Assembly (NCBI GenBank): GCA_049652925.1
Contig: JBASFI010000012.1
Location: 66,095-130,094, forward strand
DNA from: Azonexus sp.
GTDB taxonomy: Bacteria; Pseudomonadota; Gammaproteobacteria; Burkholderiales; Rhodocyclaceae
Direction of reading: 5' to 3'
Length of the DNA: 64,000 bases
The notes beneath the pieces are model-generated. The model was given only the letters and a program-made list of their open reading frames with translations, made no database searches and had not been told where the DNA came from. This document shows, piece by piece, positions 1,817 to 33,368 of the stretch; the first letter of the stretch is position 1; each line of letters starts with the position of its first letter. A program made the translations under genes and the position numbers.

Positions 1817-3766
<1,950 letters not shown>

Positions 3767-3770
3767 TCGC

Positions 3771-6084: not shown

Positions 6085-6123
6085 TTCCACGGTCAACCGG
6101 GAAAAACGCCCAAAATTGAAATC
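6085..6123 (+). repeat. dispersed CCGGTTGACCGTG-core repeat, copy E1 (intergenic)
   Basis: TTCCACGGTCAACCGGGAAAAACGCCCAAAATTGAAATC. An imperfect inverted arm TTTTGCCCG (6067-6075) can pair with CGCCCAAAA (6107-6115). Confidence 0.85.
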
Positions 6124-6386: not shown

Positions 6387-9300
6387 TTAAATCGGCACCA
6401 CATTCAAGCCGCCGTTGCCGAAACTCTCCGGATTGGCACCACCAACGAAAAGTTTGAAATCGTTGTCGGCGAAATTGCCGATGACCTTGGCCTGCCTGGC
6501 CAGCAGTAGCCCGACGTTGCCTTGCGGTTCCAGCGTGTTGCCGTTGAAGGCACAATTGAATCCCGGATAGTGATCTTCCTCGCTGTCGATGCGATTGTTG
6601 GTGACCTGCAGGTTGTGCCAGACAGGGATGCTTCCCTGGGCGCTGTCGATCACCTTGGCCCAGGCTTTGCCGCTGATCCGCAGGCCCTGAAGCTCGTTTC
6701 GTTCAACGACCAGAGTGCCGCTGTCATCGAAAGTCACGGCCCCTGCCTTGAGTGCCGCGCTCAGGCGTTGCAACTGGTCGGTGTTGATGTCGGGCAAGTC
6801 GTCGGACTCGCCGAACAGTGTGATCCGGCCACGCACCCGGTTGTTGATCAGGCTGGCATCATCGGTGTCGTCGAGCGCCAGCGCAAAGGCCGGGGTGGCG
6901 GCACGCAGGGCGTCGGCGAGTTGATCGAGGGCCTTGCTCAGGCCGGCCGCCGTTGAATTCCGGCTGACGACGACGCGCAGGTTGTTGAGGCTGGTCTGTT
7001 CGCGGCTACTGAGGTTCACCAGGTCATTGCTGCGCAGGAGGGTGCTGATCTCGGCCGCCATTTTCTTGCGGTCTGCCGCGCTGAGGGCGGCGATGGCTTC
7101 GGAGGCCTCGTTCAGGCTGCCATCAAGAATGGCGGTGGGGCCGAAGGCATTCCTGTTCGCGGCGAGGCTGGGGACGCGCTGGAGAACGAAATCCAGTTTT
7201 TCGTTGTTGTTCTCTGTAGCAAGGGCGAAAACGGTACAGTCTTCAATCAGTAGACGCGCGCTACCGGCAATTTGCAGCAAGCTGTTGCCGGTCGTTGATG
7301 TACCAAAGAACTCCACATGGCTGAAGTTGATGTTGTGGCATTTCAGGAAGGTGAAATTGCTTTCGCTCCCCCAGTTCACCAGGGTGAAGTCCTTCAAACT
7401 CAGCGACCCGAAGGCGTCGAACTTGAACTCTTGCTGCTTGAGGACCAGTCGGCTGGCCGGGCCGGCGCCGTGGATGCAGATGTGGTGGCGTGACGTCCCG
7501 GTCAGGCTGAGGTCGTCGGCCAACCGGTGGTTCCCGGGTAGCAGGCAAATGCAGATGTCGCGGCGGTCTTCAGTGATCAGGGCGCGCAGGGCGCCATCTA
7601 GCGTCTCGTATTCGCCAGTCAGGCCGACCGTGACGCAACAACCACCGTCACCCAGCGGGCGCTTGCACAGCGTGTCGATGGCGTCCTGCACGGTGTAGGC
7701 CTCGGCCGCCACCAGGTCAGGGCAAGCGGTGGGGTCGTAGGCGACGCCGCTAGCCAGCGCCAATTGGGCGCTGAAATGCACCGGAAGATAACGCCCGGCC
7801 ACGATCTGGCCGGCAACCAGCAACTCGGCCGTGGCGTGCTGGACGGGTTTGGCCGGATCGGAGTCGAGTGACCAGGCGATGCTGGCAACCCCGTCAGCCA
7901 GCGTATCGACCTCCTGAATTTTCGTCCCATTGGGCAACAGTCCATCGCTTGCCGTGAAGCGGACCCGCGCCCCGACGACCGGGAACTGGCCGTTGGCGAC
8001 GCCGACCTGCAGCGGGCTGGGCAGCGCGACCAGGGCCGGCGTGTTGGACGGATTGGTCTTGATGCTCTGGCCGTCGCCGCCGACGTAATGGAGCTGGGTC
8101 AGCTCGGTCAGGCTGGGGAAAAGCGGGCGGCAGTCCGCTTTGAGGATCCAGGCGCCAGCCTTGAATTCGAGCAGGGCCAGGCGGGCGAAAGCGCGTAAAA
8201 CACCGGCCGGCGAGAGAAAGGCCGGCTTGCCATTTTCCTGCGGCCATTCGATGGCCGCCGTGGCAGTGCGGGCGGGAATCAGCCAGTAGTCGCCAATCCG
8301 GTAGCGGCCTGGCGCGAACTTGAGTTCAATGCCGTCCTGCGCCAGTTCCTCCCAGCCGGTAGCCGAGTTGATGGCCGAGGGGCTGATCTCGGCCATGCCA
8401 TCCCAGCGCCGGACACGTGGATTGCGTGGGAACATAGCCTGGTCCAGGGCATGGCCGATCAGCTTGGTCAGGTCGACGGTGACGACATTGCCTTCGGTGC
8501 GGATGACCGGCACGAGCGGGCCGGGCTGGCCGAGCAGCTCGTGCGTGTCGTCGTAAAACTCGACCCAGCAACCGGCGGTGATGGCCAACACATCATCGCG
8601 GCCGATGCTGGCAACCTCGAATTCGTTGGCAATCGGGTCGTTGAGCCAGCGGACGACCCGGCTGGCCAGGCTGCCGTTGTCGCGCGACCACTTGTAGCGG
8701 GCCTTGCCGGTGACGCTCGCATCGTCGTGAATCTCGACGCGGTAGAGATGGTTTTCGAGCAAGCGGTAGCCGGCTTCCGGCGGCAACTGGCAGGGCGTCT
8801 TGGGTGGGATGCTGGCTTCGGCCCGGGCAGCGAGACGGCCATCGGGTGCCGCGGTCAACGTGCTCCAGGCGGCAATATTCGACAGGCAGGTGAGCGGCGC
8901 ATCGAGTTCGCCGGCGCGCAGTAGCTTGACCTGCCAGACGGTTTTCTCACGGGTGCAGGTATCGGGCCCGCCGAGCGCCACTTCGCGCATGCTCGTGTCG
9001 TCCACCGGCAGATCGAGCGGGCTCAGATGGCGCTGCCAGGCTTCGAGGTAGGCGAGATAGGTGCCGTCAGGCGGGGCCACGGCGTTGCCGGCACTGAAGA
9101 CGACGACGCCGGTAATGCTCGCCGCCGTGACGCCGACGGGCGGCAGTGGCAGCAGCGAAGCACCCGCCGGCAGCACTGGAGAAGCGGTGTCGGGCAGGTC
9201 GGGCTGGTCGGCGACCGTCGTGGCGGCCGTGTTTTCGCAGAGCAGACCATCGACGTAGAGGCGTCCGGCCGAGATGCCCAGATCGGTGCCGGCCGGCGTC

Positions 9301-9494
9301 AGGCCGAAGCCGGGATTGTCGATGGGCACGGCAACCGGCCCGAGGCTGTCGCGCGTCTCGATCTCGATACGATGGTTGAGGATGTCCTGCTGCTCGTTGA
9401 AATCGGCGTCTAGCTGCACGCGGCCCTGTTGCATCCGCACGCTGCGGTAGCGTCTGGCCTTGTCGAAGGTGGCGCGGCTGAGGTCGGCTTTCAT
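6387..9494 (-). CDS. eCIS distal gene: large fibre-like or receptor-binding-like protein with a C-terminal right-handed beta-helix-like region
   Basis: GGGAGAG RBS. The 1035 aa protein starts MKADLSRATFDKARRYRSVRMQQGRVQLDADFNEQQD. The C-terminal half has repeated short N/G/V-rich rungs (NNRVRGRITLFGES, VTNNRIDSEED, VIGNFADNDF). It is the last gene of the tail operon. Confidence 0.7.
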   Translation of the reverse strand: MKADLSRATFDKARRYRSVRMQQGRVQLDADFNEQQDILNHRIEIETRDSLGPVAVPIDNPGFGLTPAGTDLGISAGRLYVDGLLCENTAATTVADQPDLPDTASPVLPAGASLLPLPPVGVTAASITGVVVFSAGNAVAPPDGTYLAYLEAWQRHLSPLDLPVDDTSMREVALGGPDTCTREKTVWQVKLLRAGELDAPLTCLSNIAAWSTLTAAPDGRLAARAEASIPPKTPCQLPPEAGYRLLENHLYRVEIHDDASVTGKARYKWSRDNGSLASRVVRWLNDPIANEFEVASIGRDDVLAITAGCWVEFYDDTHELLGQPGPLVPVIRTEGNVVTVDLTKLIGHALDQAMFPRNPRVRRWDGMAEISPSAINSATGWEELAQDGIELKFAPGRYRIGDYWLIPARTATAAIEWPQENGKPAFLSPAGVLRAFARLALLEFKAGAWILKADCRPLFPSLTELTQLHYVGGDGQSIKTNPSNTPALVALPSPLQVGVANGQFPVVGARVRFTASDGLLPNGTKIQEVDTLADGVASIAWSLDSDPAKPVQHATAELLVAGQIVAGRYLPVHFSAQLALASGVAYDPTACPDLVAAEAYTVQDAIDTLCKRPLGDGGCCVTVGLTGEYETLDGALRALITEDRRDICICLLPGNHRLADDLSLTGTSRHHICIHGAGPASRLVLKQQEFKFDAFGSLSLKDFTLVNWGSESNFTFLKCHNINFSHVEFFGTSTTGNSLLQIAGSARLLIEDCTVFALATENNNEKLDFVLQRVPSLAANRNAFGPTAILDGSLNEASEAIAALSAADRKKMAAEISTLLRSNDLVNLSSREQTSLNNLRVVVSRNSTAAGLSKALDQLADALRAATPAFALALDDTDDASLINNRVRGRITLFGESDDLPDINTDQLQRLSAALKAGAVTFDDSGTLVVERNELQGLRISGKAWAKVIDSAQGSIPVWHNLQVTNNRIDSEEDHYPGFNCAFNGNTLEPQGNVGLLLARQAKVIGNFADNDFKLFVGGANPESFGNGGLNVVPI

Positions 9495-9524
9495 TGTGTC
9501 TCTCCCGGTTTTTGTCTAGTGGGG

Positions 9525-11663
9525 CTAATTGACGAAAATCGCGGCCGTTTCGAGGCCGAAACGCAGGTATTCGTCCAGCGCCAGCGCCAGATTGGCTTCG
9601 CGCTGCGGTTGCTGGAGCAGGTTCCAGACACCCATCTCGGCACCGTTGTCGGAGCCGGTCCGGATTTCCGGGGCGGTGGTTCGCGTCAGCTGGCCGTAGG
9701 CCGGCGTGTTGAAGCGGGTGCTGGTGAAAGCGGGCGTGACACGCGTTGCTTCGCGGGCGGCGTCGGCGGTAGGTAAATCGGTCATGACCAGATCTGGCTG
9801 GCAGCGATGGCGGCGCGGCGTCACGGACTTTGGCGGCAGGTAGCTGTAGCGGACACAGCCTTCCTGGCGGCGGGCGATGGTGACCAGTCCGTCGAACAGG
9901 CAGTTGCTGGCCTCCAGCCGGCCGGCCGCCGTCGTTCCGAGCAGGGTGCAGGCGATGACGGTGAGCGGGCTGTCATCGACATCGAGCGCGATGTTGCCGC
10001 CTTCGCCATCGATCAGGCAGTCGCGCAGCGCGACGGCGGCGAGTGGCCGGTTGCAGCGTAGCGGGCCGCTCAGGCAGCGGTACAGGCTCAGCGTGAGGTC
10101 GGTGCCGGTTCCTGTGTGGGCGATACCGCCTTTGGACGGTACCAGGCTGCAATGGCGCAGGGTGACGGCGTGCAACGCGCCTTGCAGATTCAGGGCGCCG
10201 TCGAGCAACAGGCCGCCCAGGCTGAGCCGCGTGCTGGCGTTTCCTTGCAGCGAAAAGTCGCCGACCAGCACCGGGCGCCGGCCGGGTGCGGCCTGGATGG
10301 CAAGGTGGCTGTCGGGCAGGTCGAGTACGGGCGCGACGGCTTCGGTTGCATCGGTGTTGAGGACGAGCAGCGTGCGTTTTCCGGCGACGACGCGGTTCAC
10401 CGCATCAGCCGGGTTGGCCGGGGCGTTGAAGGCCGAGGCGAGGGTGGGCGTCGCGGCGTTGGGAATGTGGATGACGACGTCGAAATCGGCCGCTGCGGGC
10501 AGGGCAGCCAGCGGATCGTTGTCGCCCGGGCCGGGGCGCTGGTCGTAGGGGCCGGCCCCGATGTCGCCGGGGAAACCGTAGGCGTAGCTGACTTCGACAC
10601 TGGTCGCGGTGACGCCTTCAGGCAGGGCCAGGCGACCGCGCCGTGGGTCGATACCGACCAATATGCCGCCGGCGGCCGGGAAAGTCATGTCCGGTCGGCC
10701 GGCCTTGCGGGCGGCGACGGTGAGCGTGGCTGGCGGGTGACGCCAGTCTTCCGGCACCACCGTGGGAATCGGGCTGAGGTCGCAGATCACCAGGTGTTCG
10801 ACCGGCACTTCGCTGTCGTCGATCCAGACGCGCAGCACCGGGCCGCCGCCGGCTTCGGCGAAATACTGGTCGTCGGGGTCTTCGCCGTCTGTCAGGGCTT
10901 GTCGGCGGGCTTCGAGTTCGGCGTGCAGGTCGCGCCAGTGCAGCACTTCCGGGACGTTGATTGGTTCGGCCAGATGGCTGATGTCCGTCTCGGTGCGTGG
11001 CCGGTTGAACAGCGGCTGGTCGAGGCCGAGCGGGTCGAAGGTGTAGAAGCCAGGCCGCGTCGTCGCCGGGCGGGCGGTGGCGCGCTGCACCGGGTAGGCT
11101 TGCAGGCGCCAGAGGAAAAGGCCGACATTCGGCAGGTTGTAGCGGCCGGCCGGCAGGGCGCGGATGTCTGCAGTGTGCGCTTCGCTGCCGAATGGGCCGT
11201 CGATGCGGTCAAGCGGCCGTGCCTGCCGGAGATCCGGCGTGCGCAGGGAATGCGGCCGCAGATGATTCAAATATTGGGTAGTCGATACCCGTTCGAAGAA
11301 CTCGACGGCACGGGCGCGCCAGCCGGTGGTGTCGAAGGCCAGTTCTTCAAGAACGAGCGCCGTGCCCTTGCGCCGGCGCAGGCGCAGGGTGTTGGCGACC
11401 AGTGCGCGCGGACCGAAAGCGGCGGTGCCACCGACCGGATAGAGGGCGCGCACGCCGAGCAGGTCGCCGATATAGGGCACTACCCAGTCTTCGCAGGTTT
11501 CGATGAAGGCGTTGTCGTAGAGCCGTTCGATATCGGCTTCGACGAGCGCGCCCTGGCGGGCGATGACGCCGAGCAGGGCGCGCAGCGGGTCGCCCGCTTC
11601 GGCGTCGCGCTCGCGGTAGAAGGCGGGCAGTAGGCTGAGCAGGATATCGGCGTCGAGTTTCAT
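9525..11663 (-). CDS. phage tail protein I (P2 gpI)-like baseplate wedge protein with a beta-helix-like C-terminal part
   Basis: N-terminus MKLDADILLSLLPAFYRERDAEAGDPLRALLGVIARQ...DNAFIETCEDWVVPYIGDLLGV resembles the gpI/TIGR02242-type tail protein. ATGA overlap with the upstream gene. Confidence 0.7.
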   Translation of the reverse strand: MKLDADILLSLLPAFYRERDAEAGDPLRALLGVIARQGALVEADIERLYDNAFIETCEDWVVPYIGDLLGVRALYPVGGTAAFGPRALVANTLRLRRRKGTALVLEELAFDTTGWRARAVEFFERVSTTQYLNHLRPHSLRTPDLRQARPLDRIDGPFGSEAHTADIRALPAGRYNLPNVGLFLWRLQAYPVQRATARPATTRPGFYTFDPLGLDQPLFNRPRTETDISHLAEPINVPEVLHWRDLHAELEARRQALTDGEDPDDQYFAEAGGGPVLRVWIDDSEVPVEHLVICDLSPIPTVVPEDWRHPPATLTVAARKAGRPDMTFPAAGGILVGIDPRRGRLALPEGVTATSVEVSYAYGFPGDIGAGPYDQRPGPGDNDPLAALPAAADFDVVIHIPNAATPTLASAFNAPANPADAVNRVVAGKRTLLVLNTDATEAVAPVLDLPDSHLAIQAAPGRRPVLVGDFSLQGNASTRLSLGGLLLDGALNLQGALHAVTLRHCSLVPSKGGIAHTGTGTDLTLSLYRCLSGPLRCNRPLAAVALRDCLIDGEGGNIALDVDDSPLTVIACTLLGTTAAGRLEASNCLFDGLVTIARRQEGCVRYSYLPPKSVTPRRHRCQPDLVMTDLPTADAAREATRVTPAFTSTRFNTPAYGQLTRTTAPEIRTGSDNGAEMGVWNLLQQPQREANLALALDEYLRFGLETAAIFVN

Positions 11664-14600
11664 GACGTGCGCTCCGTGAGGGTGACGGCCGCTGGGTCGA
11701 TCAGCATCAGGTCGGCTGGTTGCAGGCTGTTGCCCTGCCAGCGGGCGCTACGGGCCGGGATGCTGCCATCGGGGCCGTTCGAGGTGAGGACGGTGAGTCC
11801 CGATTCGACTTGAATCAGTTTGTCGAGATCGGCGCCGATGACGCCGGCGACGCCTTGCAGCGCAGCCAGCACCTCGCTGCCGGTAACCGGCTGGCCAAAG
11901 GCGCGGGCGGCGAAACCGAAGGCTGTTTCGAGCACTTTGCCGGCGGCGGCAAGAACTTTCTCGGCTTCGTAGTCCGGCGCAATCCACAGCCCGGCGGTCA
12001 GGCCGAAGCGCAGGTCGCGGCTGGGGCTCACGCGCAGCGGCTGGTAGGGCGGCCGGGCGCCATCGATGGCGGCGAGCAGGTTGCGGTAGAGCGCGGCATT
12101 CGGATCGAGCGGGGCGCCGTCGGTGCCGGCGACGGTCAGGTGGACCATGCGCTGTTCGCCGTCCCACAGCCAGACGGCCTGGGCCTTGCCGATGCCGGTG
12201 AAGGCGGCGGCGAAATCCTCGAAGTCGCGCAGCGAGACGATGCGGTCGAGTGTGCGGACGCGCAGCGGGGCGTTGCGCCGGGCTTCGTCGCCGGCTTCGG
12301 CATTGGTGCCGCCGCTGGCTGCGACCGGGTTGGTGACGGCTTTGAGGCCGGGCGGCCGGGAGAGCAGCATGCTGATCTGCTCGGCCTTGACGTTGCCGGC
12401 CGTCCCGAGGCCGACGCGATAGCGCGCTTCGACATTGCCGCTGCCGGTGGGTAGGCGGGTGCCGTGCACGCCGTCGCCGAACTGCACGGTGGCGCTGCCG
12501 TTTTCGGCGAGCTTGACGGTGTAGGCGCGCTCGGTCGGGCCGGGCGCGGTGAAGTGCGGCGCTTCCTGCCAGAGCAGGCCATCGACGCGGATTTCCAGCG
12601 TGCTTGCCGTGCCGCTCGGCGTCGCTGCGGTGATGTAGGTCAGCGGCCCCTGGCGCAGAGCGAAACGTTGCAGGCTGCGGCTGCCGTCGCCGCTGCCCAG
12701 GGGCTCGGGTTGAATGCGCATCTGCTTGCTGTCGCCGGCGCTGGCCGGGGCAAGGTTGACGTTGATGCGGACGGTGGACGGCAGGTAGGCGTGCGTCAGA
12801 TCGCTGTCGAGCAGCAGCTGGGTGTGGCCGTTGCTGCTGTCGTTGTGCTGGATGCGGACGATTTCGGCGGTCGGAGCGAGTGCCACGGTCAACCGGAAAA
12901 AATCCTCAAATTCGAAATCGGCGGTTTTGCGGTCGCGGGCGATGCGGATGGATGCCAGCGGGTCGCCTTTCTTTAGCCGGCTCAGTGCCTTGGCATTGGC
13001 CGGAACATCGGCCAGAACGAGGCCGGAGATGGCTATCCAGCGGCCCTCCGGCAGATCCGGCTCGTAGCCGGCGAGGTCAATCAGGTGGCCTTGCAGGAAC
13101 CCGGAGAGCGGCCGGGTGGCCCAGTCGAGCGGCTCCGACTGGCCGAAGGCCGTCGTGCTGCGGACATGGTCGTTGAAGGTGTCGCGCAGGTTTTCGCCGC
13201 TTAGCGTCAGGCGGGTGGCGGTGGCCGAGACGGTGAAGTCGGCTCGGGCGTCGTCCTCGGTGCTGACGATGCGATAGACCTCTTCGTAATTCGGGATGGA
13301 CATCACGGCCCAGCCGTCGGCCAGCCATTTCGGGTAGCTGGCGTCGAGGTGAATGGTATGGATATCGCGCGGATAGAGGCGGGTGGCAGGGATGACGGCT
13401 CTGGCGACGCCGGGGCCGGACCATTCCAGTTTGCAGGCGGCAGCCCCGCCGTTCTCGTAATACTCGAGCCGGATGTCGTGCTTGTGATTGGCTTGCAGAC
13501 GGGCCGACCCGGTGCGTTCGGTGAAGCCCTGATCGATCCAGAAATCGATGACGAGTTCGCCATCGATCCACAGCCGCAAGCCGTCGTCGGAAGTAACGAA
13601 AAAGTTGAACTGGCCGCTGCTCGGCGCTTCCACCCAACCGGACCAGCGCACCGAGAAATGGTCAGCCGGCACGGCTGGATCGGGGCTGCCGATGCTCCAG
13701 TCGAAATTCACGGTGGCATCGGTACGGCTCAGGATCGCTTCGCGGAATCCCTTGCCACGATAGTACTGGCCAAGCAGCCCGGTACCGCTGGCGTTGCCGG
13801 CCGGTGGATCGGAAATGTCGGCCAGCGTGAAGCCTGGCCATTCCGGATGCTGGCTGATCGGCGGCTTGGCGTCGTCGGCCATGCCCAGGTAGGTGGCGCG
13901 AAGGTTGGCCGGCATCGCCCGCCAGTCGGGGGCATTGTGGCCGAACAGGTGGGCGCGGGCGCGCAGGGCGTAGCAGCGCGGATTGGTGCGGGCCGGATGG
14001 ACGCCATGCCAGGGTTTGCCAAGGCCGCGATCGAGCGTGACGACGGTGTAGCCGATGTCCTTCGGGTCGCTCGGGTCGGCCGGCAGCACTTCGCGCAGGC
14101 GGGTGACGCGGCGGAAATCCCAGTTTTCGTTTCCGGGGTCTTTGCTGCGTTCGTCGCCGACAATGAGCAGGGCGTCGCCCGCTTGCAGCCGGGTCGCGGT
14201 GCCGGCCAGATAAATGGTGCGCAGGCCCATGCGCGGCGACACGGTTTCGGCGGCGAGCACGGGCAGCGCGTTCCAGCGGACCTTGGCGTCGATCGCTTCG
14301 AGCGTCTCGAAGGTCTGCGCCGTTTCGTCCTGGCCGGGCACGCTCTGGGCCCGGGCGCCGATGTCGATGCGGGTTTCGAGCGGGGCGCCGGGCGCGGTTT
14401 CGAGTGTGAAGGCGAGCCAGGTCGAGGCCGCCACGCCGGGGCGCAGTTCGTAGCCGATGGCGCGGGCCAGTTCGAGGACCGAGCGGCGTTCGGTGGCGGT
14501 GCGCAGGTAGTTTTCGTTGCCGATGCGCTCCTGGTAGAAACTCAGCACATCAAGCACGGCGGCCCAGCTGTCGAGCAGGGCGATGGCCGGGTCGTCGCTG

Positions 14601-14782
14601 GCGCGGGTGGTCAGATTTTCGAGGGCGGGCTCGTCGGCGAGGTCGGCCAGCATGCTCTGCCGGAAGCGGCCATGGGTGCCGACGCGCAGTGCCAACGCTG
14701 GTTGGCCGGGGGGCTGGATTTCATCGACTGGCGTCAGCGGCGTGACGCCGGCACAGCAGCCGCAATTGTCGGAAGTGCTCAT
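11660..14782 (-). CDS. large eCIS baseplate protein with an embedded PA14 domain
   Basis: 1040 aa with ATGA overlaps at both ends. N-terminus MSTSDNCGCCAGVTP... Residues about 333-470 match the PA14 pattern: GLLGQYYRGKGF...HFSVRWSGWVEAPSSGQFNFFVTSDDGLRLWIDGELVID...DIRLEYYENGGAAACKLEW. Confidence 0.8.
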   Translation of the reverse strand: MSTSDNCGCCAGVTPLTPVDEIQPPGQPALALRVGTHGRFRQSMLADLADEPALENLTTRASDDPAIALLDSWAAVLDVLSFYQERIGNENYLRTATERRSVLELARAIGYELRPGVAASTWLAFTLETAPGAPLETRIDIGARAQSVPGQDETAQTFETLEAIDAKVRWNALPVLAAETVSPRMGLRTIYLAGTATRLQAGDALLIVGDERSKDPGNENWDFRRVTRLREVLPADPSDPKDIGYTVVTLDRGLGKPWHGVHPARTNPRCYALRARAHLFGHNAPDWRAMPANLRATYLGMADDAKPPISQHPEWPGFTLADISDPPAGNASGTGLLGQYYRGKGFREAILSRTDATVNFDWSIGSPDPAVPADHFSVRWSGWVEAPSSGQFNFFVTSDDGLRLWIDGELVIDFWIDQGFTERTGSARLQANHKHDIRLEYYENGGAAACKLEWSGPGVARAVIPATRLYPRDIHTIHLDASYPKWLADGWAVMSIPNYEEVYRIVSTEDDARADFTVSATATRLTLSGENLRDTFNDHVRSTTAFGQSEPLDWATRPLSGFLQGHLIDLAGYEPDLPEGRWIAISGLVLADVPANAKALSRLKKGDPLASIRIARDRKTADFEFEDFFRLTVALAPTAEIVRIQHNDSSNGHTQLLLDSDLTHAYLPSTVRINVNLAPASAGDSKQMRIQPEPLGSGDGSRSLQRFALRQGPLTYITAATPSGTASTLEIRVDGLLWQEAPHFTAPGPTERAYTVKLAENGSATVQFGDGVHGTRLPTGSGNVEARYRVGLGTAGNVKAEQISMLLSRPPGLKAVTNPVAASGGTNAEAGDEARRNAPLRVRTLDRIVSLRDFEDFAAAFTGIGKAQAVWLWDGEQRMVHLTVAGTDGAPLDPNAALYRNLLAAIDGARPPYQPLRVSPSRDLRFGLTAGLWIAPDYEAEKVLAAAGKVLETAFGFAARAFGQPVTGSEVLAALQGVAGVIGADLDKLIQVESGLTVLTSNGPDGSIPARSARWQGNSLQPADLMLIDPAAVTLTERTS
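12883..12919 (+). repeat. dispersed repeat copy E2, in-frame inside the PA14 baseplate gene
   Basis: CCACGGTCAACCGGAAAAAATCCTCAAATTCGAAATC, read on the minus strand as ...DFEFEDFFRLTVA... It is flanked by the 8-nt direct repeat TCGGCGGT at 12864-12871 and 12918-12925. Confidence 0.85.
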
Positions 14783-17235
14783 GATCCGCCCTCCACAATG
14801 AAGCTGATCTGGCCGTTTTCAGGGAAATTGAGGTCGCCGTCGGCGCGCAGGACTTCGAGCTGATCGGCGGTGATGACGCCAGCCGCCAGTTCGCCCTTGG
14901 CGCTGCGCCCCCAGCGTTGGAAGCGGCGGATGTCGACCGAGGCGACACCGGCCACGGCCATGGCCCGGGCGACGACGGCGGACAAATAGAGTGGCGTGCC
15001 GAAGGTGAAGCCGTCGGGGTGGAAGAAGCCGGGCCGGCCATGGCGGTCGACGCCGGCGGTGAAGGCTTCGAGCAGGGCGGCTTTGACGTCGGCCGCGAAG
15101 TAGCCGCTGGCGACGCAGATCTGCAGCTGGATATCGAGCGGGACATGCACCGGATCGGCGAATTCGAAGTCGTAGCCGGCCAGCCGGAAACGTTCGAGGA
15201 AGGCGCGCATGGTCGCTTTGAATGCGGCGTCGACTGGCTTGCCGGCGCGGCGGTCGAGCATCAGAAAAACGGTGTACCAACTGCCGGTCCAGCGCAGGCG
15301 GGCAGCGGCCCGTTGCACATCGGGATGGCGCTCGGCGGCGCGGGCGTAGTCGTCGGTGGTGACGGCACGCTCCTGCGTACGGAAGGCTTCCGGGGCGTTT
15401 AGGCGGATGGCGTCGAGCGTTTCCGGCTCGGCGCCGCCGACGGCTGGCAAGGGGTTGCGCAGGGACTGGATGCCCAGCATCAGGTTGGCATCGTCGCTGA
15501 TCAGGGCGCTGATCGCCTCGGCACCGACGTTGCCTTGCGGGCCGCCGCCCAGCCGGTAGCGGGCGAGCAGGCGTTGGCCGGTGATCGGCGCGGCGCCGAA
15601 CTGGTTGTCGCCGAAACGCAGCCAGGCGCTGCCATCGTTTTCGGTTTCGACGACGAATTCGCGGGCGAAACGCTCGCTGCCGAGCAGATCGCGTTCCGGT
15701 GTCCACGGCGTTTCATTCGGGTCGGGCTGGTCGCCGAACAGGCTGGAATCGTCAGCCAGCAGCATCATGTCGGCAGGCCGTGCCCGGCGGGGCTCCTGCG
15801 TGAGGACGCGGCTGGTCGAGAGCGGCTGCTGGTCGTTGGTCGCTACGTCGTGATCGTAGGGCTCGGCGAAAGCGAGGCCGGATTCCTTCAGGCGCGGCCG
15901 GTAGGGCAGGCGCAGGGCCGCCGCTCCGCCATCGCCCACCTCGGGCGGTTCCAGCGTTTGCCAGGGCCGGGTCAGGCCGTGGTCGGCCAGCACGACATTG
16001 CCGCGGGCGACGGCGATGGCCTGCTTGACGAGGGCGCCGCCGATCTCGAATTCGTGGCTGACGCAGAGTGGGAAGGGCAGTGCATCTTCGTTGTGCCAGT
16101 TGATGAGCAGCAGGTCAGTGTTGGTCAGGTCGTCGTGGCCGGGGCTGACGGCGGTCAGGCGCACCGGGTGGCGATGGCTGGCATCGAGATCGGCAACTTT
16201 GCCGGTGGTCGGGCTAAGGACTTCTTCGAGGATCAGCACGTCGCCGGCGGCCAGCGCTAGGGCCGGCGTGTTGACCAGGGCCGCCGCCGTCGTACCGCGT
16301 GGCAGGCAGTAGGCCGGGTCGGCAAAGTCGTGGATGGCGATTTCGCTGTGGGCGGCGTGCAGGACCTGATCGTGCAGGGTTTCGAAGACTTCGATGCCAG
16401 GCAGCGGCAACTGGTCGAGCAAGTCCGTGCGGCGGACCGGGTCGCCGGTGCCAGCCGCGGCGAGCAGCGCGGTGCCGGCCGGGATGGTTTTTGCCTCGGC
16501 ATCAGCGTCGACCGTAGCAGTCACGAAAACCCGGGCATTGCAGCCATCGTGCAGCGGGTAGTCGAGCAGCCGGGCATGGCGGCGCAGCGAGGTACGGCGG
16601 CGGGCGGTGCCAAGGTAGGCTTCGGTGGCTGCGGAATCCTGCGTGTAGGAAAGATGGTCGCCAACATAGGCCAGCGTCTCGACCAGAGCCACCGTGAAGT
16701 CGGCCGGGCTGCGTTCGGCAAAGCCGGGCACCAGTTGCGACATGCGGTCGAGCATGAGGCGGCGGAAACTGTCATAGTCCTTGGCCAGATAGTCGAGGCG
16801 CGGCTCGGGCGGCGTCACCGGCGGGCAATCCTGAATGTCGGCGCAGTCGAATTCGGAGGGGCAGCCTGCCTTGAAATTGATGCGGATGGTGGACAGGCAG
16901 ATGTCGAAGCCGGGGGCCGGTGCTTCGGCGTCGGCCGGGTCGATCAGGCTCAAGGTGTACCACGAGAAATCGCCAGCCTGTTCGACCTTGAGGCGGATTT
17001 CCCGGCCGTTGATGACCGGTTCGGCAGCCAGTTTTATGCCGGTAACCCGTACTCCGCCGTCGATATGGACATTGGCGCAGCTGATGCCGCTGACCGGATG
17101 GACGCAGACGACGCGCAGGCTGCGCTGGTCGAGCGAGGTGATCTCGACGAAATCGATGCCGTTCTTGCCGACCGGGTTCTGGTCGCGCAGCAGTTGCAGG
17201 CGGCGCGGGTTGTCGCTGCGGAACTGGCGATTCAT
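14779..17235 (-). CDS. baseplate J (gpJ / T4 gp6)-like protein
   Basis: Start taken at the internal ATG MNRQFRSDNPRRLQLL, an ATGA overlap with the gp25 gene stop. The Arg-rich 44-aa upstream extension of ORF 14779..17367 is an overlap artefact. Size and position after gp25 fit baseplate J. Confidence 0.8.
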   Translation of the reverse strand: MNRQFRSDNPRRLQLLRDQNPVGKNGIDFVEITSLDQRSLRVVCVHPVSGISCANVHIDGGVRVTGIKLAAEPVINGREIRLKVEQAGDFSWYTLSLIDPADAEAPAPGFDICLSTIRINFKAGCPSEFDCADIQDCPPVTPPEPRLDYLAKDYDSFRRLMLDRMSQLVPGFAERSPADFTVALVETLAYVGDHLSYTQDSAATEAYLGTARRRTSLRRHARLLDYPLHDGCNARVFVTATVDADAEAKTIPAGTALLAAAGTGDPVRRTDLLDQLPLPGIEVFETLHDQVLHAAHSEIAIHDFADPAYCLPRGTTAAALVNTPALALAAGDVLILEEVLSPTTGKVADLDASHRHPVRLTAVSPGHDDLTNTDLLLINWHNEDALPFPLCVSHEFEIGGALVKQAIAVARGNVVLADHGLTRPWQTLEPPEVGDGGAAALRLPYRPRLKESGLAFAEPYDHDVATNDQQPLSTSRVLTQEPRRARPADMMLLADDSSLFGDQPDPNETPWTPERDLLGSERFAREFVVETENDGSAWLRFGDNQFGAAPITGQRLLARYRLGGGPQGNVGAEAISALISDDANLMLGIQSLRNPLPAVGGAEPETLDAIRLNAPEAFRTQERAVTTDDYARAAERHPDVQRAAARLRWTGSWYTVFLMLDRRAGKPVDAAFKATMRAFLERFRLAGYDFEFADPVHVPLDIQLQICVASGYFAADVKAALLEAFTAGVDRHGRPGFFHPDGFTFGTPLYLSAVVARAMAVAGVASVDIRRFQRWGRSAKGELAAGVITADQLEVLRADGDLNFPENGQISFIVEGGS

Positions 17236-17591
17236 GGGGCGCCCCTGGTGAAGCGGGTCAGCCGGCGTTCCTGGCCGCGGCGGACGACGTACTGGACGTC
17301 GACGGCAAGGGTGCCTTCGTCGTGCTCGACATTGACGCCTTCGACCACGATGCGGTCGCCCAGCCATTGTTGCAGGGCGCTGTGCACCGTCATCTGGACG
17401 GCGGCGGCCAGCGTGTCGCTGTTGGGCGCGAAGACCAGTTGCAGCAGTCCGCAGCCGAAATCGGGCCGATTGACGCGTTCGCCGGGGACGGTGAACAGCA
17501 CCTGTTCGATCATGTCGCGCAGATGGGCGTCGTTGTCGGCCTCGCCGCTGCGGCCGCGCTGATCGGGCTGGAATGGGAAATGGAGGCTCAT
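17232..17591 (-). CDS. GPW/gp25-family baseplate wedge protein
   Basis: 119 aa. The motif ...HLRDMIEQVLFTVPGERVNRPDFGCGL... is the classic gp25/GPW signature. Confidence 0.85.
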   Translation of the reverse strand: MSLHFPFQPDQRGRSGEADNDAHLRDMIEQVLFTVPGERVNRPDFGCGLLQLVFAPNSDTLAAAVQMTVHSALQQWLGDRIVVEGVNVEHDEGTLAVDVQYVVRRGQERRLTRFTRGAP

Positions 17592-17592
17592 C

Positions 17593-17916
17593 TCAGGTTC
17601 CCATCACGCGAGTTTGCGTCACGGCGACTGTCATCGGCGTGCCGGTCGGCGTGCAGATGGACGGCGACGCCTGAAGCAGGGCCGGCTGGCCGCCGATCAA
17701 AACGCGGGTGGCACCCATCAGCCACTGGCCGGTGACGCAGGGGCCATTGCCGGCGGTCGGTGGCGGCATGGCGCAGCCGGCGATCATGTAGGGTGGGCCC
17801 ATTGTCGTGGCCGGCTGGCCGGAGAGCAGGACGCGCGGGTTGGGCGCGCTGGGCGTGGCCTGGCCGCCGTGGGCACAGAGGACGGTGGCGCCGAGGTGGA
17901 GGATGAATCCGGGCAT
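17593..17916 (-). CDS. PAAR-like spike-tip protein
   Basis: Internal ATG of ORF 17593..18330. The 107 aa protein starts MPGFILHLGATVLCAHGGQA... and has repeated G/P/A-rich PAAR-like strands. It lies directly after the spike gene. Confidence 0.75.
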   Translation of the reverse strand: MPGFILHLGATVLCAHGGQATPSAPNPRVLLSGQPATTMGPPYMIAGCAMPPPTAGNGPCVTGQWLMGATRVLIGGQPALLQASPSICTPTGTPMTVAVTQTRVMGT

Positions 17917-17936
17917 GGTCGTCTTGTCCCTTTCTC

Positions 17937-18452
17937 TCAGATCACCGTCAGGGCGCCGTTGTTGATGTTCACCGTCGGGCCGGTGAGCATGATGGTGGCG
18001 CCTTGGCCGTTGGAAATGGTGATGCCGATTTCGCTGATTGAAATCATTGCCCCGGTCATCGTCTTGAGCAGAATGCCGCCGGTCGGGCCGGGCAGGTCGG
18101 AGATCATCAGGGTGTTCTGGTTGCCGGTCTGCAGCACGATGCTCGGCGACACCGGCAGGCCGGCCAGCGCCAGCGCCGGGACTTCGGCGGCCGAACCCCA
18201 GAAACCACCAACCCAGATCGGATAATCGGCATCGCCCTGCTCGAACTCGACCCAGACCCCGGCGCCGATCTGCGGCTGGACGAAGACGCCGCTCTGGATG
18301 CCGGCGAAGGGCACACAGGGCATGGCCCACGATGACAGCATCGGGCCGAGCACATCGGGCACCTGGACCTGGATGCGGCCCATCTGCATGGGGTCGATGT
18401 TGTTGAGGACGACCCCGCGATATTTGCCGTAATGGCGCGTTTTTTCACTCAT
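17937..18452 (-). CDS. gp5/gpV-type (VgrG-like) baseplate spike protein
   Basis: MSEKTRHYGKYRGVVLNNIDPMQMGRIQVQVPDVLG...WAMPCVPFAG...GVWVEFEQGDADYPIWVGGFW is the phage_base_V OB-fold signature. Confidence 0.85.
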   Translation of the reverse strand: MSEKTRHYGKYRGVVLNNIDPMQMGRIQVQVPDVLGPMLSSWAMPCVPFAGIQSGVFVQPQIGAGVWVEFEQGDADYPIWVGGFWGSAAEVPALALAGLPVSPSIVLQTGNQNTLMISDLPGPTGGILLKTMTGAMISISEIGITISNGQGATIMLTGPTVNINNGALTVI

Positions 18453-19886: not shown

Positions 19887-20536
19887 GGCAGTCCACTCAA
19901 TCCCAGCGAGGCCAGGCTGCCGAGGCCGGCATCGGCCGCCAGACGTTCCTTGCGCTGTTGATAAACCATATAAAGATGGCCGCCCTTGTCGTTGAAACCG
20001 AGGTCGCCAACGTGGAGGACTTTGAGACTCAGTGAGACCTTGGCGCGGATGGGGTTGAGCGCGCTGTCGAAAGCCTCTTCGGTAATCGAAAAATCGGTGA
20101 TACGCACCGGTACGACACGTTCCTTGCTCCACACGAAGAGGGTCAGCGGGGCCACCGTCGGGGCGATTTCCAGCGTGCCGAGGCTGAGCAGCGTGTTGTT
20201 CTGGATCAGCGTGTCGCTGTCCGGATAGACGATGGTTTCCAGCGCCGCCAGTTGCGGATGGATGCCGGAGGAAACCGTTTTCGGATGCTGATCGGGGAAT
20301 TCGAGTTGATCGGTGGCGTCGATTTCGGCTTCGAGCTTGAAGGTTTCGGTCGGCGGCCCTTTCAGGCGCAAGGGTTCGGAAAATGGTCCGCCCGATTCGG
20401 TGGCCTGCGCTTGCAGCGTTCGGGTCAGCGTTTCCGGGTTGTACTGCAGCGAAATGACCCGCTGCACGGCGCCGCTGGACGGGTCGATCAGGATCAGGCC
20501 GCCGCGCAGCAAGCCGGAGGAAAAGGGACCGCTCAT
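19883..20536 (-). CDS. second tube-family or tube-initiator-like protein
   Basis: 217 aa, starting MSGPFSSGLLRGGLILIDPSSGAVQRVISLQYNPETLTRTLQ... This is typical of CIS tube-like proteins encoded next to the LysM and hub genes. ATGA overlaps at both ends. Confidence 0.6.
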   Translation of the reverse strand: MSGPFSSGLLRGGLILIDPSSGAVQRVISLQYNPETLTRTLQAQATESGGPFSEPLRLKGPPTETFKLEAEIDATDQLEFPDQHPKTVSSGIHPQLAALETIVYPDSDTLIQNNTLLSLGTLEIAPTVAPLTLFVWSKERVVPVRITDFSITEEAFDSALNPIRAKVSLSLKVLHVGDLGFNDKGGHLYMVYQQRKERLAADAGLGSLASLGLSGLP

Positions 20537-29902: not shown

Positions 29903-32185
29903 TCAGACCTGGATCTGTCCGGCCAGCTGCTGGATGCTGATGACCACGAATTCGGCCGGCTTGAGCGGCGCGAAGCCGACCAGAATGTTCACCACACCGC
30001 GATTTATGTCGTCCTGCGTCGTCGTCTCCCGGTCGCACTTGACGAGATAGGCATCGCGCGGCGAACTGCCCTGGAAAGCGCCCTGGCGGAACAGGCCGTT
30101 CATGAAGGCGCCGATGTTGAGGCGAATCTGTGCCCACAGCGGTTCGTCGTTCGGCTCGAAAACGACCCATTGCGTACCGCGATAGAGCGATTCCTCGATG
30201 TAGAGCGCCAGGCGGCGAACCGGCACGTACTTGTATTCGGAGGCCATCTGATCGGCGCCGCGCAGGGTGCGGGCACCCCAGGCAATCGCGCCATAGACCG
30301 GGAAAGTACGCAGGCAATTGACGCCCAGCGGATTGAGACTGCCGTTTTCACCATCGGTCATCGGCACGGCCATCGACTGCACGCCGGCCAGATTGGCATC
30401 GGTGCCGGCCGGCGCCTTCCAGACGCCGCGATTGCCGTCGGTACGGGCGTAGAGGCCGGCCATCGTGCCACCGGGTGGGGTCAGGCGCGGCTTGCCGTTC
30501 TTGAGCGGATCGGCGACGTAGGTCCAGGGGAAATAGACTGCAGCGTGATCGGATTTCGGCAGCTCGGTGCCGGAAGCCGCGGTGACCATGGTAGCGACGC
30601 TGGTGGCCGTGGGCGGCGCATCGACGATGAAGAAGGCACGGCGCTCCTCGCAATACGAGGCGGCGTCGGCCAGCACGCCGGGGTCGGTGACGCCGGGCAT
30701 GACCAGGATGTTGAACAGATCGGCGTCTTCCAGCGCATACAAGCCTTCACGATTGGCGCGGCTGCCGATGAAGGCCGGATAGACATCGGCTGGCCCGTAA
30801 GGGGTTTCGGCGCCGCCGCCAAGGAAGGCATCGGTTGGCGGCGCGGCCAGTGTGGCACCGGCCAGCAGATGCAGGCCGGCGGCGAGGTCGTTGATCGGAG
30901 CGGCGCTGACGGCGATGGCCGAACCGGCGCCGCGCGAGCCGCTGGCCAGGACCAGCGTGGTGGCGGTCGCCGTTGCGGTGAAGTTGGCGTAGGCAGGATT
31001 GCCGGGTTTCAGGGCGCGCACAGCGGCCTGCAGGCGACTAGCCATGTCGCCGAGTTTGGCCGCGAGGTTGGCGCCGGCCGCGGCTGCGCTGCCGAGATCG
31101 ACGACATCCGGACCGTAGCCGTCGAGGCTGATGCGCAGGCTGGTGTGCGTGGCGTCGGGCAGGGCGTCGAGATCGGTGGCAGCGAAAGCGCCGCTGGTCA
31201 GCGTTGCCGGGTCGGGCAGGGGCGCCGGGCGAAGGCTGGCAACGGCATCGACTTCGACGCCGCCATTGGCGACGCCGAGCTTGAGCACGCCGGCGGCGTT
31301 GTTGCTGCTACCGGGCAGGACGCGGACGGACGAGAATTCGCCGCCGGTACCCGAGGTCATGATCAGCGTGCTGCCGCTGCGGGCGCAGGTAAATCCCGAG
31401 AGCGCCGCCTTGCCGCCGGCCTGGGCTTGAACCTTGGCCTGAATGGCGCCGGCCAGCGTGGTGAGGCGGGCATTTGCGGTGCCGCCGGCAATATCGGCCG
31501 GCAGGGTGATGCTGACGGTGACCGGTGGCAGGCCGTTCACCACGACACGGAAATCAGTGTGGGTGGCATCGAGCAGGGTCTGGACGTCGGCCAGGGTGCC
31601 GCTCGTCGAGGTGCCGGCAGCCAGGCCGTTGAGGGTGAGCTGGGGGACATCCCGGCTAATCTTGACCAGCTGCGACACGCCATTGACGAGATCTGGCAGG
31701 TAGCGGGCATCGGCCGAGTTCATCGAGACATTCGGGTACTGCTCGGCCCGGCCGTCGCTGCTGCGGATGAAAGCAATGTTGAAGGTGCTGTCCGGGTTGG
31801 CCGTCGCGTAATCGACGCGGACCTGAATGCTGTTGCCCGATTCGCCGGCATCGAGCGCCGTGACGGTCAGGACTGTGATGGGCGTCGCGTTGACCAACGC
31901 CCGACTGGCCGGTGCGGCGTTCTTGACGATGCGGACGATCCACGCATCAGTCCCGCCGTTGATGAAGAACTGGCGTACCCCGTAGCTCATCTCCGAGTCG
32001 GCCGTGAGGCCGCCGAAAGCGCGCTCGAAGTCGGCAAAGCTGAAAATTCGGGTGGCCTTGTTGATCGGCCCTCGGGATGCAGCGCCGAGGAAGGCGGCGA
32101 CCGAGGTGGCGACGCCGGCAATGGTGCGGACTCCGCTGGAAACTTCCTGGATGTAAACCCCGGGGGAAGCAAGCTGTACGGGCAT
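29903..32185 (-). CDS. contractile tail sheath protein (760 aa, with a tandem internal duplication)
   Basis: AAAGGAG RBS. The N-terminus MPVQLASPGVYIQEVSSGVRTIAGVATSVAAFLG and the C-terminal ...YKYVPVRRLALYIEESLYRGTQWVVFEPNDEPLW... are classic sheath motifs. Confidence 0.9.
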   Translation of the reverse strand: MPVQLASPGVYIQEVSSGVRTIAGVATSVAAFLGAASRGPINKATRIFSFADFERAFGGLTADSEMSYGVRQFFINGGTDAWIVRIVKNAAPASRALVNATPITVLTVTALDAGESGNSIQVRVDYATANPDSTFNIAFIRSSDGRAEQYPNVSMNSADARYLPDLVNGVSQLVKISRDVPQLTLNGLAAGTSTSGTLADVQTLLDATHTDFRVVVNGLPPVTVSITLPADIAGGTANARLTTLAGAIQAKVQAQAGGKAALSGFTCARSGSTLIMTSGTGGEFSSVRVLPGSSNNAAGVLKLGVANGGVEVDAVASLRPAPLPDPATLTSGAFAATDLDALPDATHTSLRISLDGYGPDVVDLGSAAAAGANLAAKLGDMASRLQAAVRALKPGNPAYANFTATATATTLVLASGSRGAGSAIAVSAAPINDLAAGLHLLAGATLAAPPTDAFLGGGAETPYGPADVYPAFIGSRANREGLYALEDADLFNILVMPGVTDPGVLADAASYCEERRAFFIVDAPPTATSVATMVTAASGTELPKSDHAAVYFPWTYVADPLKNGKPRLTPPGGTMAGLYARTDGNRGVWKAPAGTDANLAGVQSMAVPMTDGENGSLNPLGVNCLRTFPVYGAIAWGARTLRGADQMASEYKYVPVRRLALYIEESLYRGTQWVVFEPNDEPLWAQIRLNIGAFMNGLFRQGAFQGSSPRDAYLVKCDRETTTQDDINRGVVNILVGFAPLKPAEFVVISIQQLAGQIQV

Positions 32186-33127: not shown

Positions 33128-33368
33128 GTTTGCTTTGCCCTGGTTTGGTGCGTGGGTAAGAATCTCCGTTAGCCATCGCAACTACCGGGCCAACTTGCAG
33201 GGCTTTGATATCTATGAACTTTATTTTGTCGACGGGGTGTTGCTTGTCGCTATGCGGCGACATTATTTCGACTGGATTCGGGAGTTCGCCGTATTTCCGG
33301 CAAATTTGCCTGTCTCAAAATCACGACAACGCCCGGGCGTAGTACACGCCCACGATGCCGGGGTGCGA

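Follow-up and report, generated by a model that had tools for sequence, protein, structure and literature searches.

A complete contractile injection system operon of the eCIS superfamily on the chromosome of an Azonexus sp., tentatively assigned to clade II

A 64,000-nt stretch of the Azonexus sp. assembly GCA_049652925.1 (contig JBASFI010000012.1, 66,095-130,094; hereafter the window, in whose coordinates all positions are given) carries what is almost certainly a complete contractile injection system (CIS) operon of the extracellular CIS (eCIS) superfamily, that is, of the kind represented by the antifeeding prophage (Afp) of Serratia and the Photorhabdus virulence cassettes (PVC). The host is a freshwater betaproteobacterium of the Azonexus/Dechloromonas/Ferribacterium group. 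Taken as a whole, our reading is of a chromosomal, single-operon CIS of clade II whose particles are released by lysis and attack extracellularly, and we hold this full statement to be probable, although by no means secure.

The locus consists of 19 co-directional genes on the minus strand (g1 to g19, Table 1), running from the ATG of the sheath gene at 32185 to the last stop codon at 6387. These genes were resolved among many overlapping open reading frames (ORFs) by third-position GC frame plots and inspection of start codons. Separate gene calls on three related loci, L001 (identical in sequence), L009 and L012, reproduced the same genes and lengths, and the 19 genes and exact limits given in the original prediction were thus borne out. 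No intergenic gap in the operon exceeds 30 nt. Stop and start codons overlap by 4 nt (ATGA type) at 11 of the 18 gene junctions and by 8 nt at one more, and the 19 genes therefore form one tight, translationally coupled operon. Most of it has a GC content of 0.65-0.69, compared with about 0.57-0.62 in the flanks, and lower stretches occur at 6-8 kb and 20-22 kb (the range over the window, in segments of 2 kb, is 0.54-0.69).

Hidden Markov model (HMM) searches against Pfam and NCBIfam, read at curated cut-offs (the gathering score in the case of Pfam), recovered the markers of the eCIS superfamily, namely a contractile sheath with a gp19-type tube, a Pvc16_N cap, an Afp15-like AAA+ ATPase and two DUF4157 proteins. 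The core of the baseplate is also encoded: gp25, two Baseplate_J proteins and Phage_base_V scored above cut-off, the hub was recognized by profile only, and the PAAR-like tip stayed below the gathering score. The original prediction had listed every structural module of a contractile tail. In that list the sheath, tube, second tube protein, spike, gp25 and baseplate J stand above cut-off, whereas the LysM protein, the gpD-like hub, the PAAR tip and the P2 gpI-like match of g18 are weak. Both of the hallmark genes that it named, the AAA+ ATPase and the DUF4255 cap, were found with strong scores, as were its two cargo candidates and its PA14 insertion, and the assignments on which its call depended (sheath, tube, gp25 and ATPase) all passed their curated cut-offs.

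Table 1. Genes of the contractile injection system operon, its leader and copies of the dispersed repeat, in window coordinates.
Feature	Position	Strand	Evidence or remark
g1, contractile sheath, 760 aa	29903..32185	-	Phage_sheath_1 E 2e-10, Phage_sheath_1C E 5e-11
g2, inner tube, 174 aa	29349..29873	-	Phage_T4_gp19 E 1e-46; TIGR02241
g3, Zn-ribbon protein, 247 aa	28584..29327	-	conserved in all related loci; double Cys-pair
g4, Pro/Ala-rich low-complexity protein, 267 aa	27773..28576	-	position conserved, no family
g5, tube/sheath cap or terminator, Afp16/Pvc16-like, 430 aa	26484..27776	-	Pvc16_N (DUF4255) E 2.5e-46
g6, AAA+ ATPase, Afp15-like, 661 aa	24502..26487	-	AAA E 2e-24; N-terminal winged-helix WHD E 3.5e-18
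g7, small conserved protein, 82 aa	24257..24505	-	84% identical in L003
g8, cargo candidate 1, 635 aa	22353..24260	-	eCIS_core/DUF4157 (HExxH) E 6e-22
g9, cargo candidate 2, 607 aa	20533..22356	-	eCIS_core/DUF4157 E 8e-28
g10, second tube-fold protein, 217 aa	19883..20536	-	CIS_tube E 3.6e-7; tube adaptor or initiator, Cis5/Cis7-like
g11, small LysM-like protein, 105 aa	19569..19886	-	profile match to LysM parts, weak
g12, gp27/gpD-like baseplate hub, 375 aa	18449..19576	-	orthologue-profile match only
g13, gp5/V OB-fold spike, 171 aa	17937..18452	-	Phage_base_V E 9e-22; VgrG C-terminal models
g14, PAAR-like spike tip, 107 aa	17593..17916	-	DUF4280 E 7.6e-5, PAAR_motif E 1e-3, both below gathering score
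g15, gp25-like baseplate wedge / sheath initiator, 119 aa	17232..17591	-	GPW_gp25 E 9e-20
g16, Baseplate_J-like wedge, Cis11-like, 818 aa	14779..17235	-	TIGR02243 E 4e-84; Baseplate_J
g17, second Baseplate_J-like protein, 1040 aa	11660..14782	-	TIGR02243 E 4e-77, Baseplate_J E 2e-12, PA14 E 4e-27
g18, baseplate or fibre-adaptor candidate, 712 aa	9525..11663	-	N-terminus weakly P2 gpI-like, TIGR02242 E 6e-4, below cut-off
g19, DUF6519 protein, 1035 aa	6387..9494	-	DUF6519 E 1.4e-50; eBAP5-type fibre or baseplate-attachment marker
AT-rich leader 5' of sheath gene, about 600 nt	32186..32785	-	GC 0.57; presumed promoter region
Repeat copy in g17	12880..12918	+	in-frame readthrough, translated DFEFEDFFRLTVA
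Repeat copy in g6, near N-terminus	26366..26403	-	in-frame readthrough, translated PRSTGNNAQNQN
Repeat copy in g3	28854..28891	-	in-frame readthrough, translated PTVNRKKGQKLK
Repeat core copies in operon	12883-12896(+), 26390-26403(-), 28878-28891(-)		
Repeat core copies outside operon	3792-3805(-), 6087-6100(+), 40670-40683(-), 49798-49811(-), 56934-56947(+), 60818-60831(+), 62967-62980(+)		

The sheath protein g1 scored highest against that of Halogeometricum borinquense (9ezm; 264 bits, E 3e-77), followed by those of Streptomyces (8bky and 8bl4; 253-262 bits, best E 1e-76), whereas Afp and PVC (clade Ia) gave 142-156 bits, the AlgoCIS of Algoriphagus machipongonensis (clade Ib) 134 bits and the thylakoid-anchored CIS (tCIS) of Anabaena 131 bits. 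By these PDB bit scores alone the locus is tentatively placed in clade II and not in the branch of Afp, PVC and the metamorphosis-associated contractile structures (MAC). The original prediction had called it an Afp/PVC/MAC-type particle rather than a prophage, a tailocin or a type VI secretion system (T6SS); the superfamily and the three exclusions hold, and the branch is not supported. The Halogeometricum CIS belongs to clade IIa and is T6SS-like, envelope-anchored and contact-dependent (PMC11566945). The Streptomyces CIS belongs to clade IId, is cytoplasmic, mediates death of the producer cell and has no tail-fibre gene (PMC10066040).

Comparison with the solved systems shows a mixture of likenesses. 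Like the CIS of Streptomyces coelicolor and S. venezuelae (8bky, 8bl4, 9gtp; PMC10066040), the window locus has a single sheath gene and no recognizable tape measure, and 9gtp supplies both the only PDB match of g16, to its baseplate J-like protein (E 5e-10), and a LysM protein that weakly matches g11. It differs from them by its DUF6519 protein, its PA14-bearing baseplate protein, a sheath of 760 aa instead of 534 aa and a Gram-negative host. In the Halogeometricum system, as in the window, DUF4157 genes separate two blocks of structural genes (PMC11566945). Its genes, however, are carried on a plasmid, its particles dock to the cytoplasmic membrane in association with the six-helix membrane protein Hbor_38620, and it has toxin-immunity pairs; none of these features was seen in the window.

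AlgoCIS (7adz; PMC8894135) provides the best match to the tube protein g2 (E 5e-17), equalled by the Anabaena tCIS (7b5h; E 6e-17). It resembles the window also in having two proteins composed of a disordered N-terminal domain, DUF4157 and a variable C-terminal domain, which in AlgoCIS are lumen cargo loaded in an AAA+-dependent manner. Its mode is extracellular, with no dedicated lysis genes reported in its cluster. It differs in its sheath, in a cap adaptor and a tape measure (Alg14), neither of which was found in the window, and in unrelated cargo C-terminal domains. The LysM-containing protein All3321 of the Anabaena tCIS weakly matches g11, and in two loci from cyanobacteria (L004 and L005) the genes follow exactly the same order as in the window, but the tCIS sheath is distant and the particle is anchored to the thylakoid through baseplate and crown extensions (eBAP4), not through DUF6519. 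Afp and PVC have in common with the window the tube, sheath, gp25, Baseplate_J and VgrG/PAAR proteins as well as the AAA+ ATPase (Afp15/Pvc15) and the DUF4255 cap (Afp16/Pvc16). They carry three sheath paralogues where the window has one, an adenovirus-like fibre (Afp13) and a tape measure (Afp14), for neither of which Pfam or PHROGs detected a homologue in the operon, and their cargo lacks DUF4157. Cap and ATPase genes stand at the 3' end of the Afp and PVC clusters, followed by the toxins, whereas in the window the cap, ATPase and DUF4157 genes lie mid-operon, between the tube and the baseplate modules.

Related loci were retrieved with the cap protein g5, and gene order was compared by tblastn of the 19 proteins and by gene calls on further contigs. 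In a broader set of eight other loci (L003-L010) from five phyla or classes, the window order is syntenic: sheath, tube, g3 (gp51-like), g4 (Pro-rich), cap, AAA, small protein and DUF4157 gene(s), then a baseplate part with second tube protein, LysM-like protein, hub, V, PAAR, gp25 and J. The hosts are two Azonexaceae-type betaproteobacteria, the two cyanobacteria, Dokdonella (Gammaproteobacteria), an Acidobacteriota metagenome-assembled genome (MAG), Hellea (Alphaproteobacteria) and one further metagenome contig, and in haloarchaeal CIS the DUF4157 genes likewise lie between two structural blocks (PMC11566945). The mid-operon position of cap, ATPase and cargo genes, called atypical in the original prediction, does differ from that in Afp, but is standard in this lineage. 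The eCIS that Geller et al. (2021) catalogued in Dechloromonas aromatica RCB is another locus, whose genes are ordered differently, and the names of the other hosts were not found in the accessible parts of the supplements.

Closer to the window, three loci allow the surroundings of the operon to be compared. The sequence of L003, a Betaproteobacteria MAG, extends from the upstream neighbours of the operon into the beginning of g16, that of L009 spans g1-g18, and that of L012, from the complete genome of Ferribacterium limneticum (CP075189.1), spans g12-g19 together with downstream genes. Wherever their sequence reaches, the 19-gene arrangement is the same, with protein identities of about 55-97% for L003 and 89-90% for L012. 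Upstream, the small ORF, YjbQ and HNH neighbours match in L003. Downstream, the operon of L012 ends with the same last gene, and its neighbours (a 348-aa protein, DUF808 and a GyrB-like gene) match as well. The shared arrangement and the shared neighbours on both sides show vertical inheritance, and the locus is thus a vertically inherited chromosomal feature of an Azonexaceae-type clade and not a recent island. The cultured F. limneticum very probably carries the whole operon, to judge from g12-g19, the last of which is 89% identical.

The sheath of this group has a distinct build. An insertion of about 230 aa (residues ~215-450, window 30746-31675 on the minus strand) is absent from the short homologues of L004, L007, L008 and L010, and L006 is also without the shared insertion; sheath homologues that lack it (cyanobacteria, Acidobacteriota MAG, Hellea and L010) are 530-570 aa long. 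The insertion is specific to the sheath of the Azonexus/Dechloromonas lineage, and it presumably decorates the sheath surface. It is made up of two segments of about 100 aa that look alike by eye, and no Pfam family matched it at E up to 1.

Among the other genes of the first part of the operon, g3 gave only sub-threshold Zn-ribbon and T4_baseplate matches (Pfam, E up to 10; E 0.07 for the latter), but its homologue in L010 carries PF12322 T4_baseplate (gp51 family), and g3 is probably a baseplate assembly factor like gp51 of T4. The product of g4 matched no HMM, including Pfam at E up to 10; it aligns over its full length with L003 (55% identity) and only over the C-terminal 60 aa with the more distant L005. 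Guessing from its position only, we consider it a candidate length-determining or assembly factor. The Pvc16_N match of the cap protein g5 covers 179 of 180 profile positions, while a PDB search with its single sequence gave no match; an alternative ATG exists at 27842, and the 430-aa call agrees with L001 and L009. The AAA domain of g6 is of the Cdc48/p97 type (E 1e-29), which fits an unfoldase, and by analogy with Alg15 of AlgoCIS (bioRxiv 10.64898/2026.05.27.728243) g6 is the presumed unfoldase and loader of cargo. No HMM matched g7, which has a counterpart of 81-85 aa at the same position in L009, L010 and L011.

The baseplate part combines firm and faint assignments. The best PDB profile matches of g11 were the LysM parts of 9gtp_P (Streptomyces CIS) and of tCIS All3321, at E 0.05-0.07 only, and g11 was also the sole one of ten poorly assigned proteins with a PHROGs match (phrog_28233, E 1.7e-4, a family of unknown function). 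Searches with the single sequence of g12 found nothing among HMMs or in the PDB, but a profile of seven orthologues matched the N-terminal part of the VgrG 9rce_F (residues 63-182, E 1e-4). The place of g14 just after the spike gene g13 fits a PAAR-like tip. In g17, the PA14 domain is inserted at aa 334-466, and L009 and L012 have the same 1040-aa architecture. Beyond its gpI-like N-terminus, g18 gave no match in Pfam (E up to 10, and up to 1 for the C-terminus), PHROGs or a single-sequence PDB search.

DUF6519, the domain of the last protein, g19, corresponds to eBAP5 (PMC12923769). The protein is 100% identical to one of an Azonexus sp. MAG and 89-90% identical to those of Ferribacterium limneticum and Dechloromonas MAGs, and homologues at full length (100% coverage) occur across phyla down to 36% identity, among them those of Ferribacterium, Dechloromonas, Azoarcus, Achromobacter, Pseudomonas, Paraburkholderia and Massilia. 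In tail fibres of the eBAP5 kind (PMC12923769), an N-terminal DUF6519 domain for attachment to the baseplate is followed by a variable part that binds the receptor. Since g19 is conserved over all of its 1035 aa, no such variable part can be made out in it, and its C-terminal 437 aa have no Pfam match (E up to 1).

The two cargo candidates have no mutual similarity outside DUF4157, and neither C-terminus matched Pfam at E up to 10. The AlphaFold2 (AF2) model of g8 (predicted local distance difference test, pLDDT, 87.8) comprises a low-confidence N-terminus (residues 1-18 and 40-49 below 50), DUF4157 at 71-147, a long alpha-solenoid and a folded C-terminal alpha/beta domain. The only specific Foldseek matches of this last domain were the cysteine protease CPR-C4 and vasohibins (probability 0.9-0.99, E 0.09-0.3), and an alignment of 27 g8 sequences shows no variation in HExxH, C518, H552 or N568. 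The domain may therefore be a transglutaminase-like protease with a Cys-His-Asn triad, which is a plausible prediction. Full-length homologues of g8 (45-92% identity) are found in Azonexus, Thiomonas, Actinoplanes and Actinomycetota MAGs. The model of g9 (pLDDT 77) has a disordered N-terminus of about 44 residues (1-44 below 50), DUF4157 at 52-127, a beta-rich middle domain and, as its folded C-terminal domain, a beta-sandwich that matched the C2 domains of Munc13, perforin and cPLA2 (E 8e-6 to 1e-3, probability 1.0). The C2-like fold of this model suggests membrane binding. Homologues of g9 occur in Dechloromonas, Chloroflexi, Longimicrobium and Pedobacter. Identities of 40-55% across phyla, as seen for both proteins, are unusual for supposed toxins.

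In these models, for which low pLDDT is the only proxy for N-terminal disorder, the succession of disordered N-terminus, DUF4157 and folded C-terminal domain matches that of the AlgoCIS lumen cargo proteins Cgo1 and Cgo2. Both fill the tube lumen and leak out after contraction (PMC8894135), and their loading needs their N-terminus and the AAA+ protein Alg15 (bioRxiv 10.64898/2026.05.27.728243; PMC8894135). DUF4157 proteins of Halogeometricum are secreted in a CIS-dependent manner (PMC11566945).

Following solved homologous systems, assembly would begin with a baseplate made of the gp27-like hub, the gp5 spike with its PAAR-like tip, gp25, the adaptor, the DUF6519 protein and two Baseplate_J proteins, one of them displaying the PA14 sugar-binding domain. 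This baseplate would nucleate the gp19-type tube, with the contractile sheath around it and the Pvc16-like cap at the distal end. The Cdc48-like AAA+ ATPase would then thread the two cargo proteins, built of disordered N-terminus, DUF4157 and effector domain, into the tube lumen. One effector domain would have the predicted cysteine-protease-like fold and the other the predicted C2-like, membrane-binding fold. Finally, contraction of the sheath would push spike and cargo through a membrane.

Gene content does not reveal the mode of action. We judge with moderate confidence that the particles are most likely released when the cell lyses and then attack extracellularly, because the operon encodes a fibre-marker protein and a PA14 domain, the latter on a peripheral baseplate protein, but no membrane anchor; a hydrophobicity scan of the operon gave no convincing transmembrane protein of the kind of Hbor_38620. 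Since clade II includes modes that are not extracellular, this one is inferred.

Several observations weigh against it. The nearest solved sheaths come from systems that are free in the cytoplasm (Streptomyces) or anchored to the envelope (Halogeometricum), so that the word extracellular in the original prediction goes further than the evidence. No holin or endolysin gene for particle release was found in or near the locus, and no CIS tape-measure family matched any protein of the operon. Receptor-binding proteins usually diversify fast, and the full-length conservation of g19 fits a structural baseplate part better than a variable fibre. Members of the g8 and g9 families from Proteobacteria share 40-55% identity over their full length with those from Actinomycetota or Chloroflexi, and no immunity gene adjoins g8 and g9; together, the two findings argue against classic interbacterial toxins. 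The calls of effector domains depend on AF2 models, and the Foldseek E-values of g8 are weak.

Much of this is what would be expected if the same machine did not act extracellularly, an explanation that we regard as possible but on the unlikely side. Particles would stay in the producer, either free in the cytoplasm and fired under stress so that the cell is killed or lysed, as happens in Streptomyces, or attached to the inner membrane and fired outward on contact, as in the T6SS-like CIS of haloarchaea or the Anabaena tCIS. The sheath scores (264 bits with Halogeometricum and 262 with Streptomyces, as opposed to 131-156 with extracellular systems), the absence of a lysis cassette, cargo conserved across phyla without immunity genes, and a DUF6519 protein conserved end to end instead of being variable at the C-terminus are all in its favour, as is vertical inheritance at a fixed chromosomal site, in the manner of a housekeeping developmental or stress module. 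However, the operon encodes no transmembrane anchor, unlike Halogeometricum with its Hbor_38620, and it does encode the DUF6519/eBAP5 fibre marker and the carbohydrate-binding PA14 domain, whereas the Streptomyces clusters are without a fibre. Similarity of sheaths is, in addition, not decisive for mode, as clade Ib holds both extracellular and T6SS-like systems (PMC8894135).

A more specific proposal would make the locus the first proteobacterial clade II system that acts inside its own producer or at the producer's envelope, for instance in stress-triggered lysis or membrane remodelling in Azonexaceae, with the DUF4157 proteins g8 and g9 as self- or eukaryote-directed effectors and not interbacterial toxins. 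Taken jointly, these points are doubtful.

Lysis release and extracellular attack remain the preferred mode, and the readings that deny a CIS altogether fare far worse. It is highly improbable that the locus is the remnant of a defective myovirus prophage or an R-type tailocin, even though the sheath, tube, gp25, Baseplate_J, V spike and weak P2-I-like match are common to tails of the P2 and T4 types. Pvc16_N, the Afp15-like AAA+ protein with its WHD, CIS_tube and two DUF4157 proteins are eCIS markers that are missing in phages and pyocins (Geller et al., 2021), and of the ten proteins compared with PHROGs none matched a phage family of annotated function. As the original prediction had stated, capsid, portal, terminase, integrase and holin/endolysin genes are missing: Pfam found none of them, nor any transposase, in the 19 genes and the credible flanking ORFs of the 64 kb, which also lack a repressor. 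Three related genomes agree in their chromosomal context, and on the downstream side beyond the window, as judged from L012, there are ordinary genes and no capsid, terminase or integrase. Gene content effectively refutes the phage reading. A canonical T6SS, to which a contractile sheath, a VgrG-like spike and a PAAR-like tip might point, is more improbable still and is refuted by the HMM results, as the sheath is of a single, phage-type gene instead of TssB/TssC, the tube is of the gp19 type and not Hcp, the cap is DUF4255 and the ATPase Cdc48-like rather than ClpB-like, and none of TssJLM, TssA, TssK, ClpV, Hcp and TssB/TssC was among the Pfam and NCBIfam families found in the window.

A dispersed repeat of 36-38 nt runs through the window and the operon. 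Its consensus is TCCACGGTCAACCGG(G)AAAAAnGCCCAAAATTGAAAT, built of the GC core CCACGGTCAACCGG, an A-tract and, after about 5 nt more, an AT-rich tract. In the 64 kb the core has 10 occurrences where 0.9 would be expected, and ORFs contain at least six of the copies and read through them in frame. The three copies that the original prediction had assigned to the locus are therefore real, but they are not accessory intergenic elements, since they lie within the coding sequences of g3, g6 and g17. The copy in g17 has an orthologous copy in the Ferribacterium locus L012, and L009 differs there by substitutions only, with no insertion or deletion. At the g6 copy, L003 and L009 have unrelated sequence of similar length. 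The g3 copy falls in a variable linker; L003 shares it, with about 34 of 38 nt identical, and L009 is without about 45 nt there. Such orthologous copies are further evidence of long residence in the genome lineage.

As to the nature of the repeat, a hairpin element of the repetitive extragenic palindromic (REP) type is unlikely, as copies fold no better than shuffled sequences, and no Rfam family matched. Simple transposition into genes fails to explain the g17 copy, given its substitutions-only difference from the L009 orthologue. With its GC core, two A/T tracts, in-frame occurrence and origin by point substitution, the motif resembles the DNA uptake signal sequences of Pasteurellaceae. By this analogy it could, purely as a hypothesis, be a DNA uptake signal sequence of Azonexaceae, or else it could derive from a mobile element; we found no paper that links uptake sequences to an Azonexaceae-type group.

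Expression of the operon presumably starts from the AT-rich leader. A sigma70-like match at 32696-32668 is no better than chance, and neither is a sigma54-like one. The latter, TGGCATTGAAACTGC at 32529-32543 on the minus strand, has the correct GG/GC spacing and lies about 345 nt before the sheath ATG; there is no gene for an enhancer-binding protein nearby, and matches of equal quality occur at chance frequency over the window. No regulator gene was found adjoining the operon. Directly upstream of the leader, an ORF of 113-131 aa at 32786-33181 (minus strand) has no Pfam match, and L003 keeps it at the same position with 52% identity.

The operon lies between ordinary chromosomal genes, as had been predicted. 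Pfam searches of credible ORFs in the 64 kb identified in the flanks PldA, a GyrB/ParE-like topoisomerase subunit, DUF808, YjbQ and an HNH protein, together with PBP1A, a radical-SAM enzyme, a PLD-like protein, an MFS transporter, AraC regulators, DegP, MsrB, Ada and a molybdopterin-binding enzyme with XdhC and a MobA-like transferase. When the GyrB/ParE-like gene is read as its longest ORF (1817-3850, minus strand), a copy of the repeat (3768-3805) falls within the first 28 codons; the Ferribacterium orthologue has 649 aa compared with 677 aa, so the true start is probably 3' of that copy. A cobalamin riboswitch (RF00174) lies at 61916-62118 on the plus strand (112 bits, E 3e-27).

This type of locus is widespread, and Pfam as well as published eCIS catalogues already contain all of its marker domains. 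Roughly 1-2% of genomes carry eCIS loci. What the Azonexus locus adds are some lineage-specific decorations: about 230 aa inserted in the sheath, a PA14 domain within one J-like protein, and conserved cargo whose domains are predicted to be protease-like and C2-like. CIS are being engineered as protein-delivery devices, while most natural lineages are uncharacterized, and we found in the literature no experimentally studied proteobacterial representative of this clade II lineage. The Azonexaceae include the abundant phosphate-accumulating Dechloromonas of wastewater. The cultured host Ferribacterium limneticum (CP075189.1, locus at about 2.52-2.54 Mb) makes the locus experimentally tractable, and the predicted folds of g8 and g9, with their named catalytic residues, make the cargo directly testable. 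In this regard, the system can address what decides between extracellular and intracellular action in clade II.

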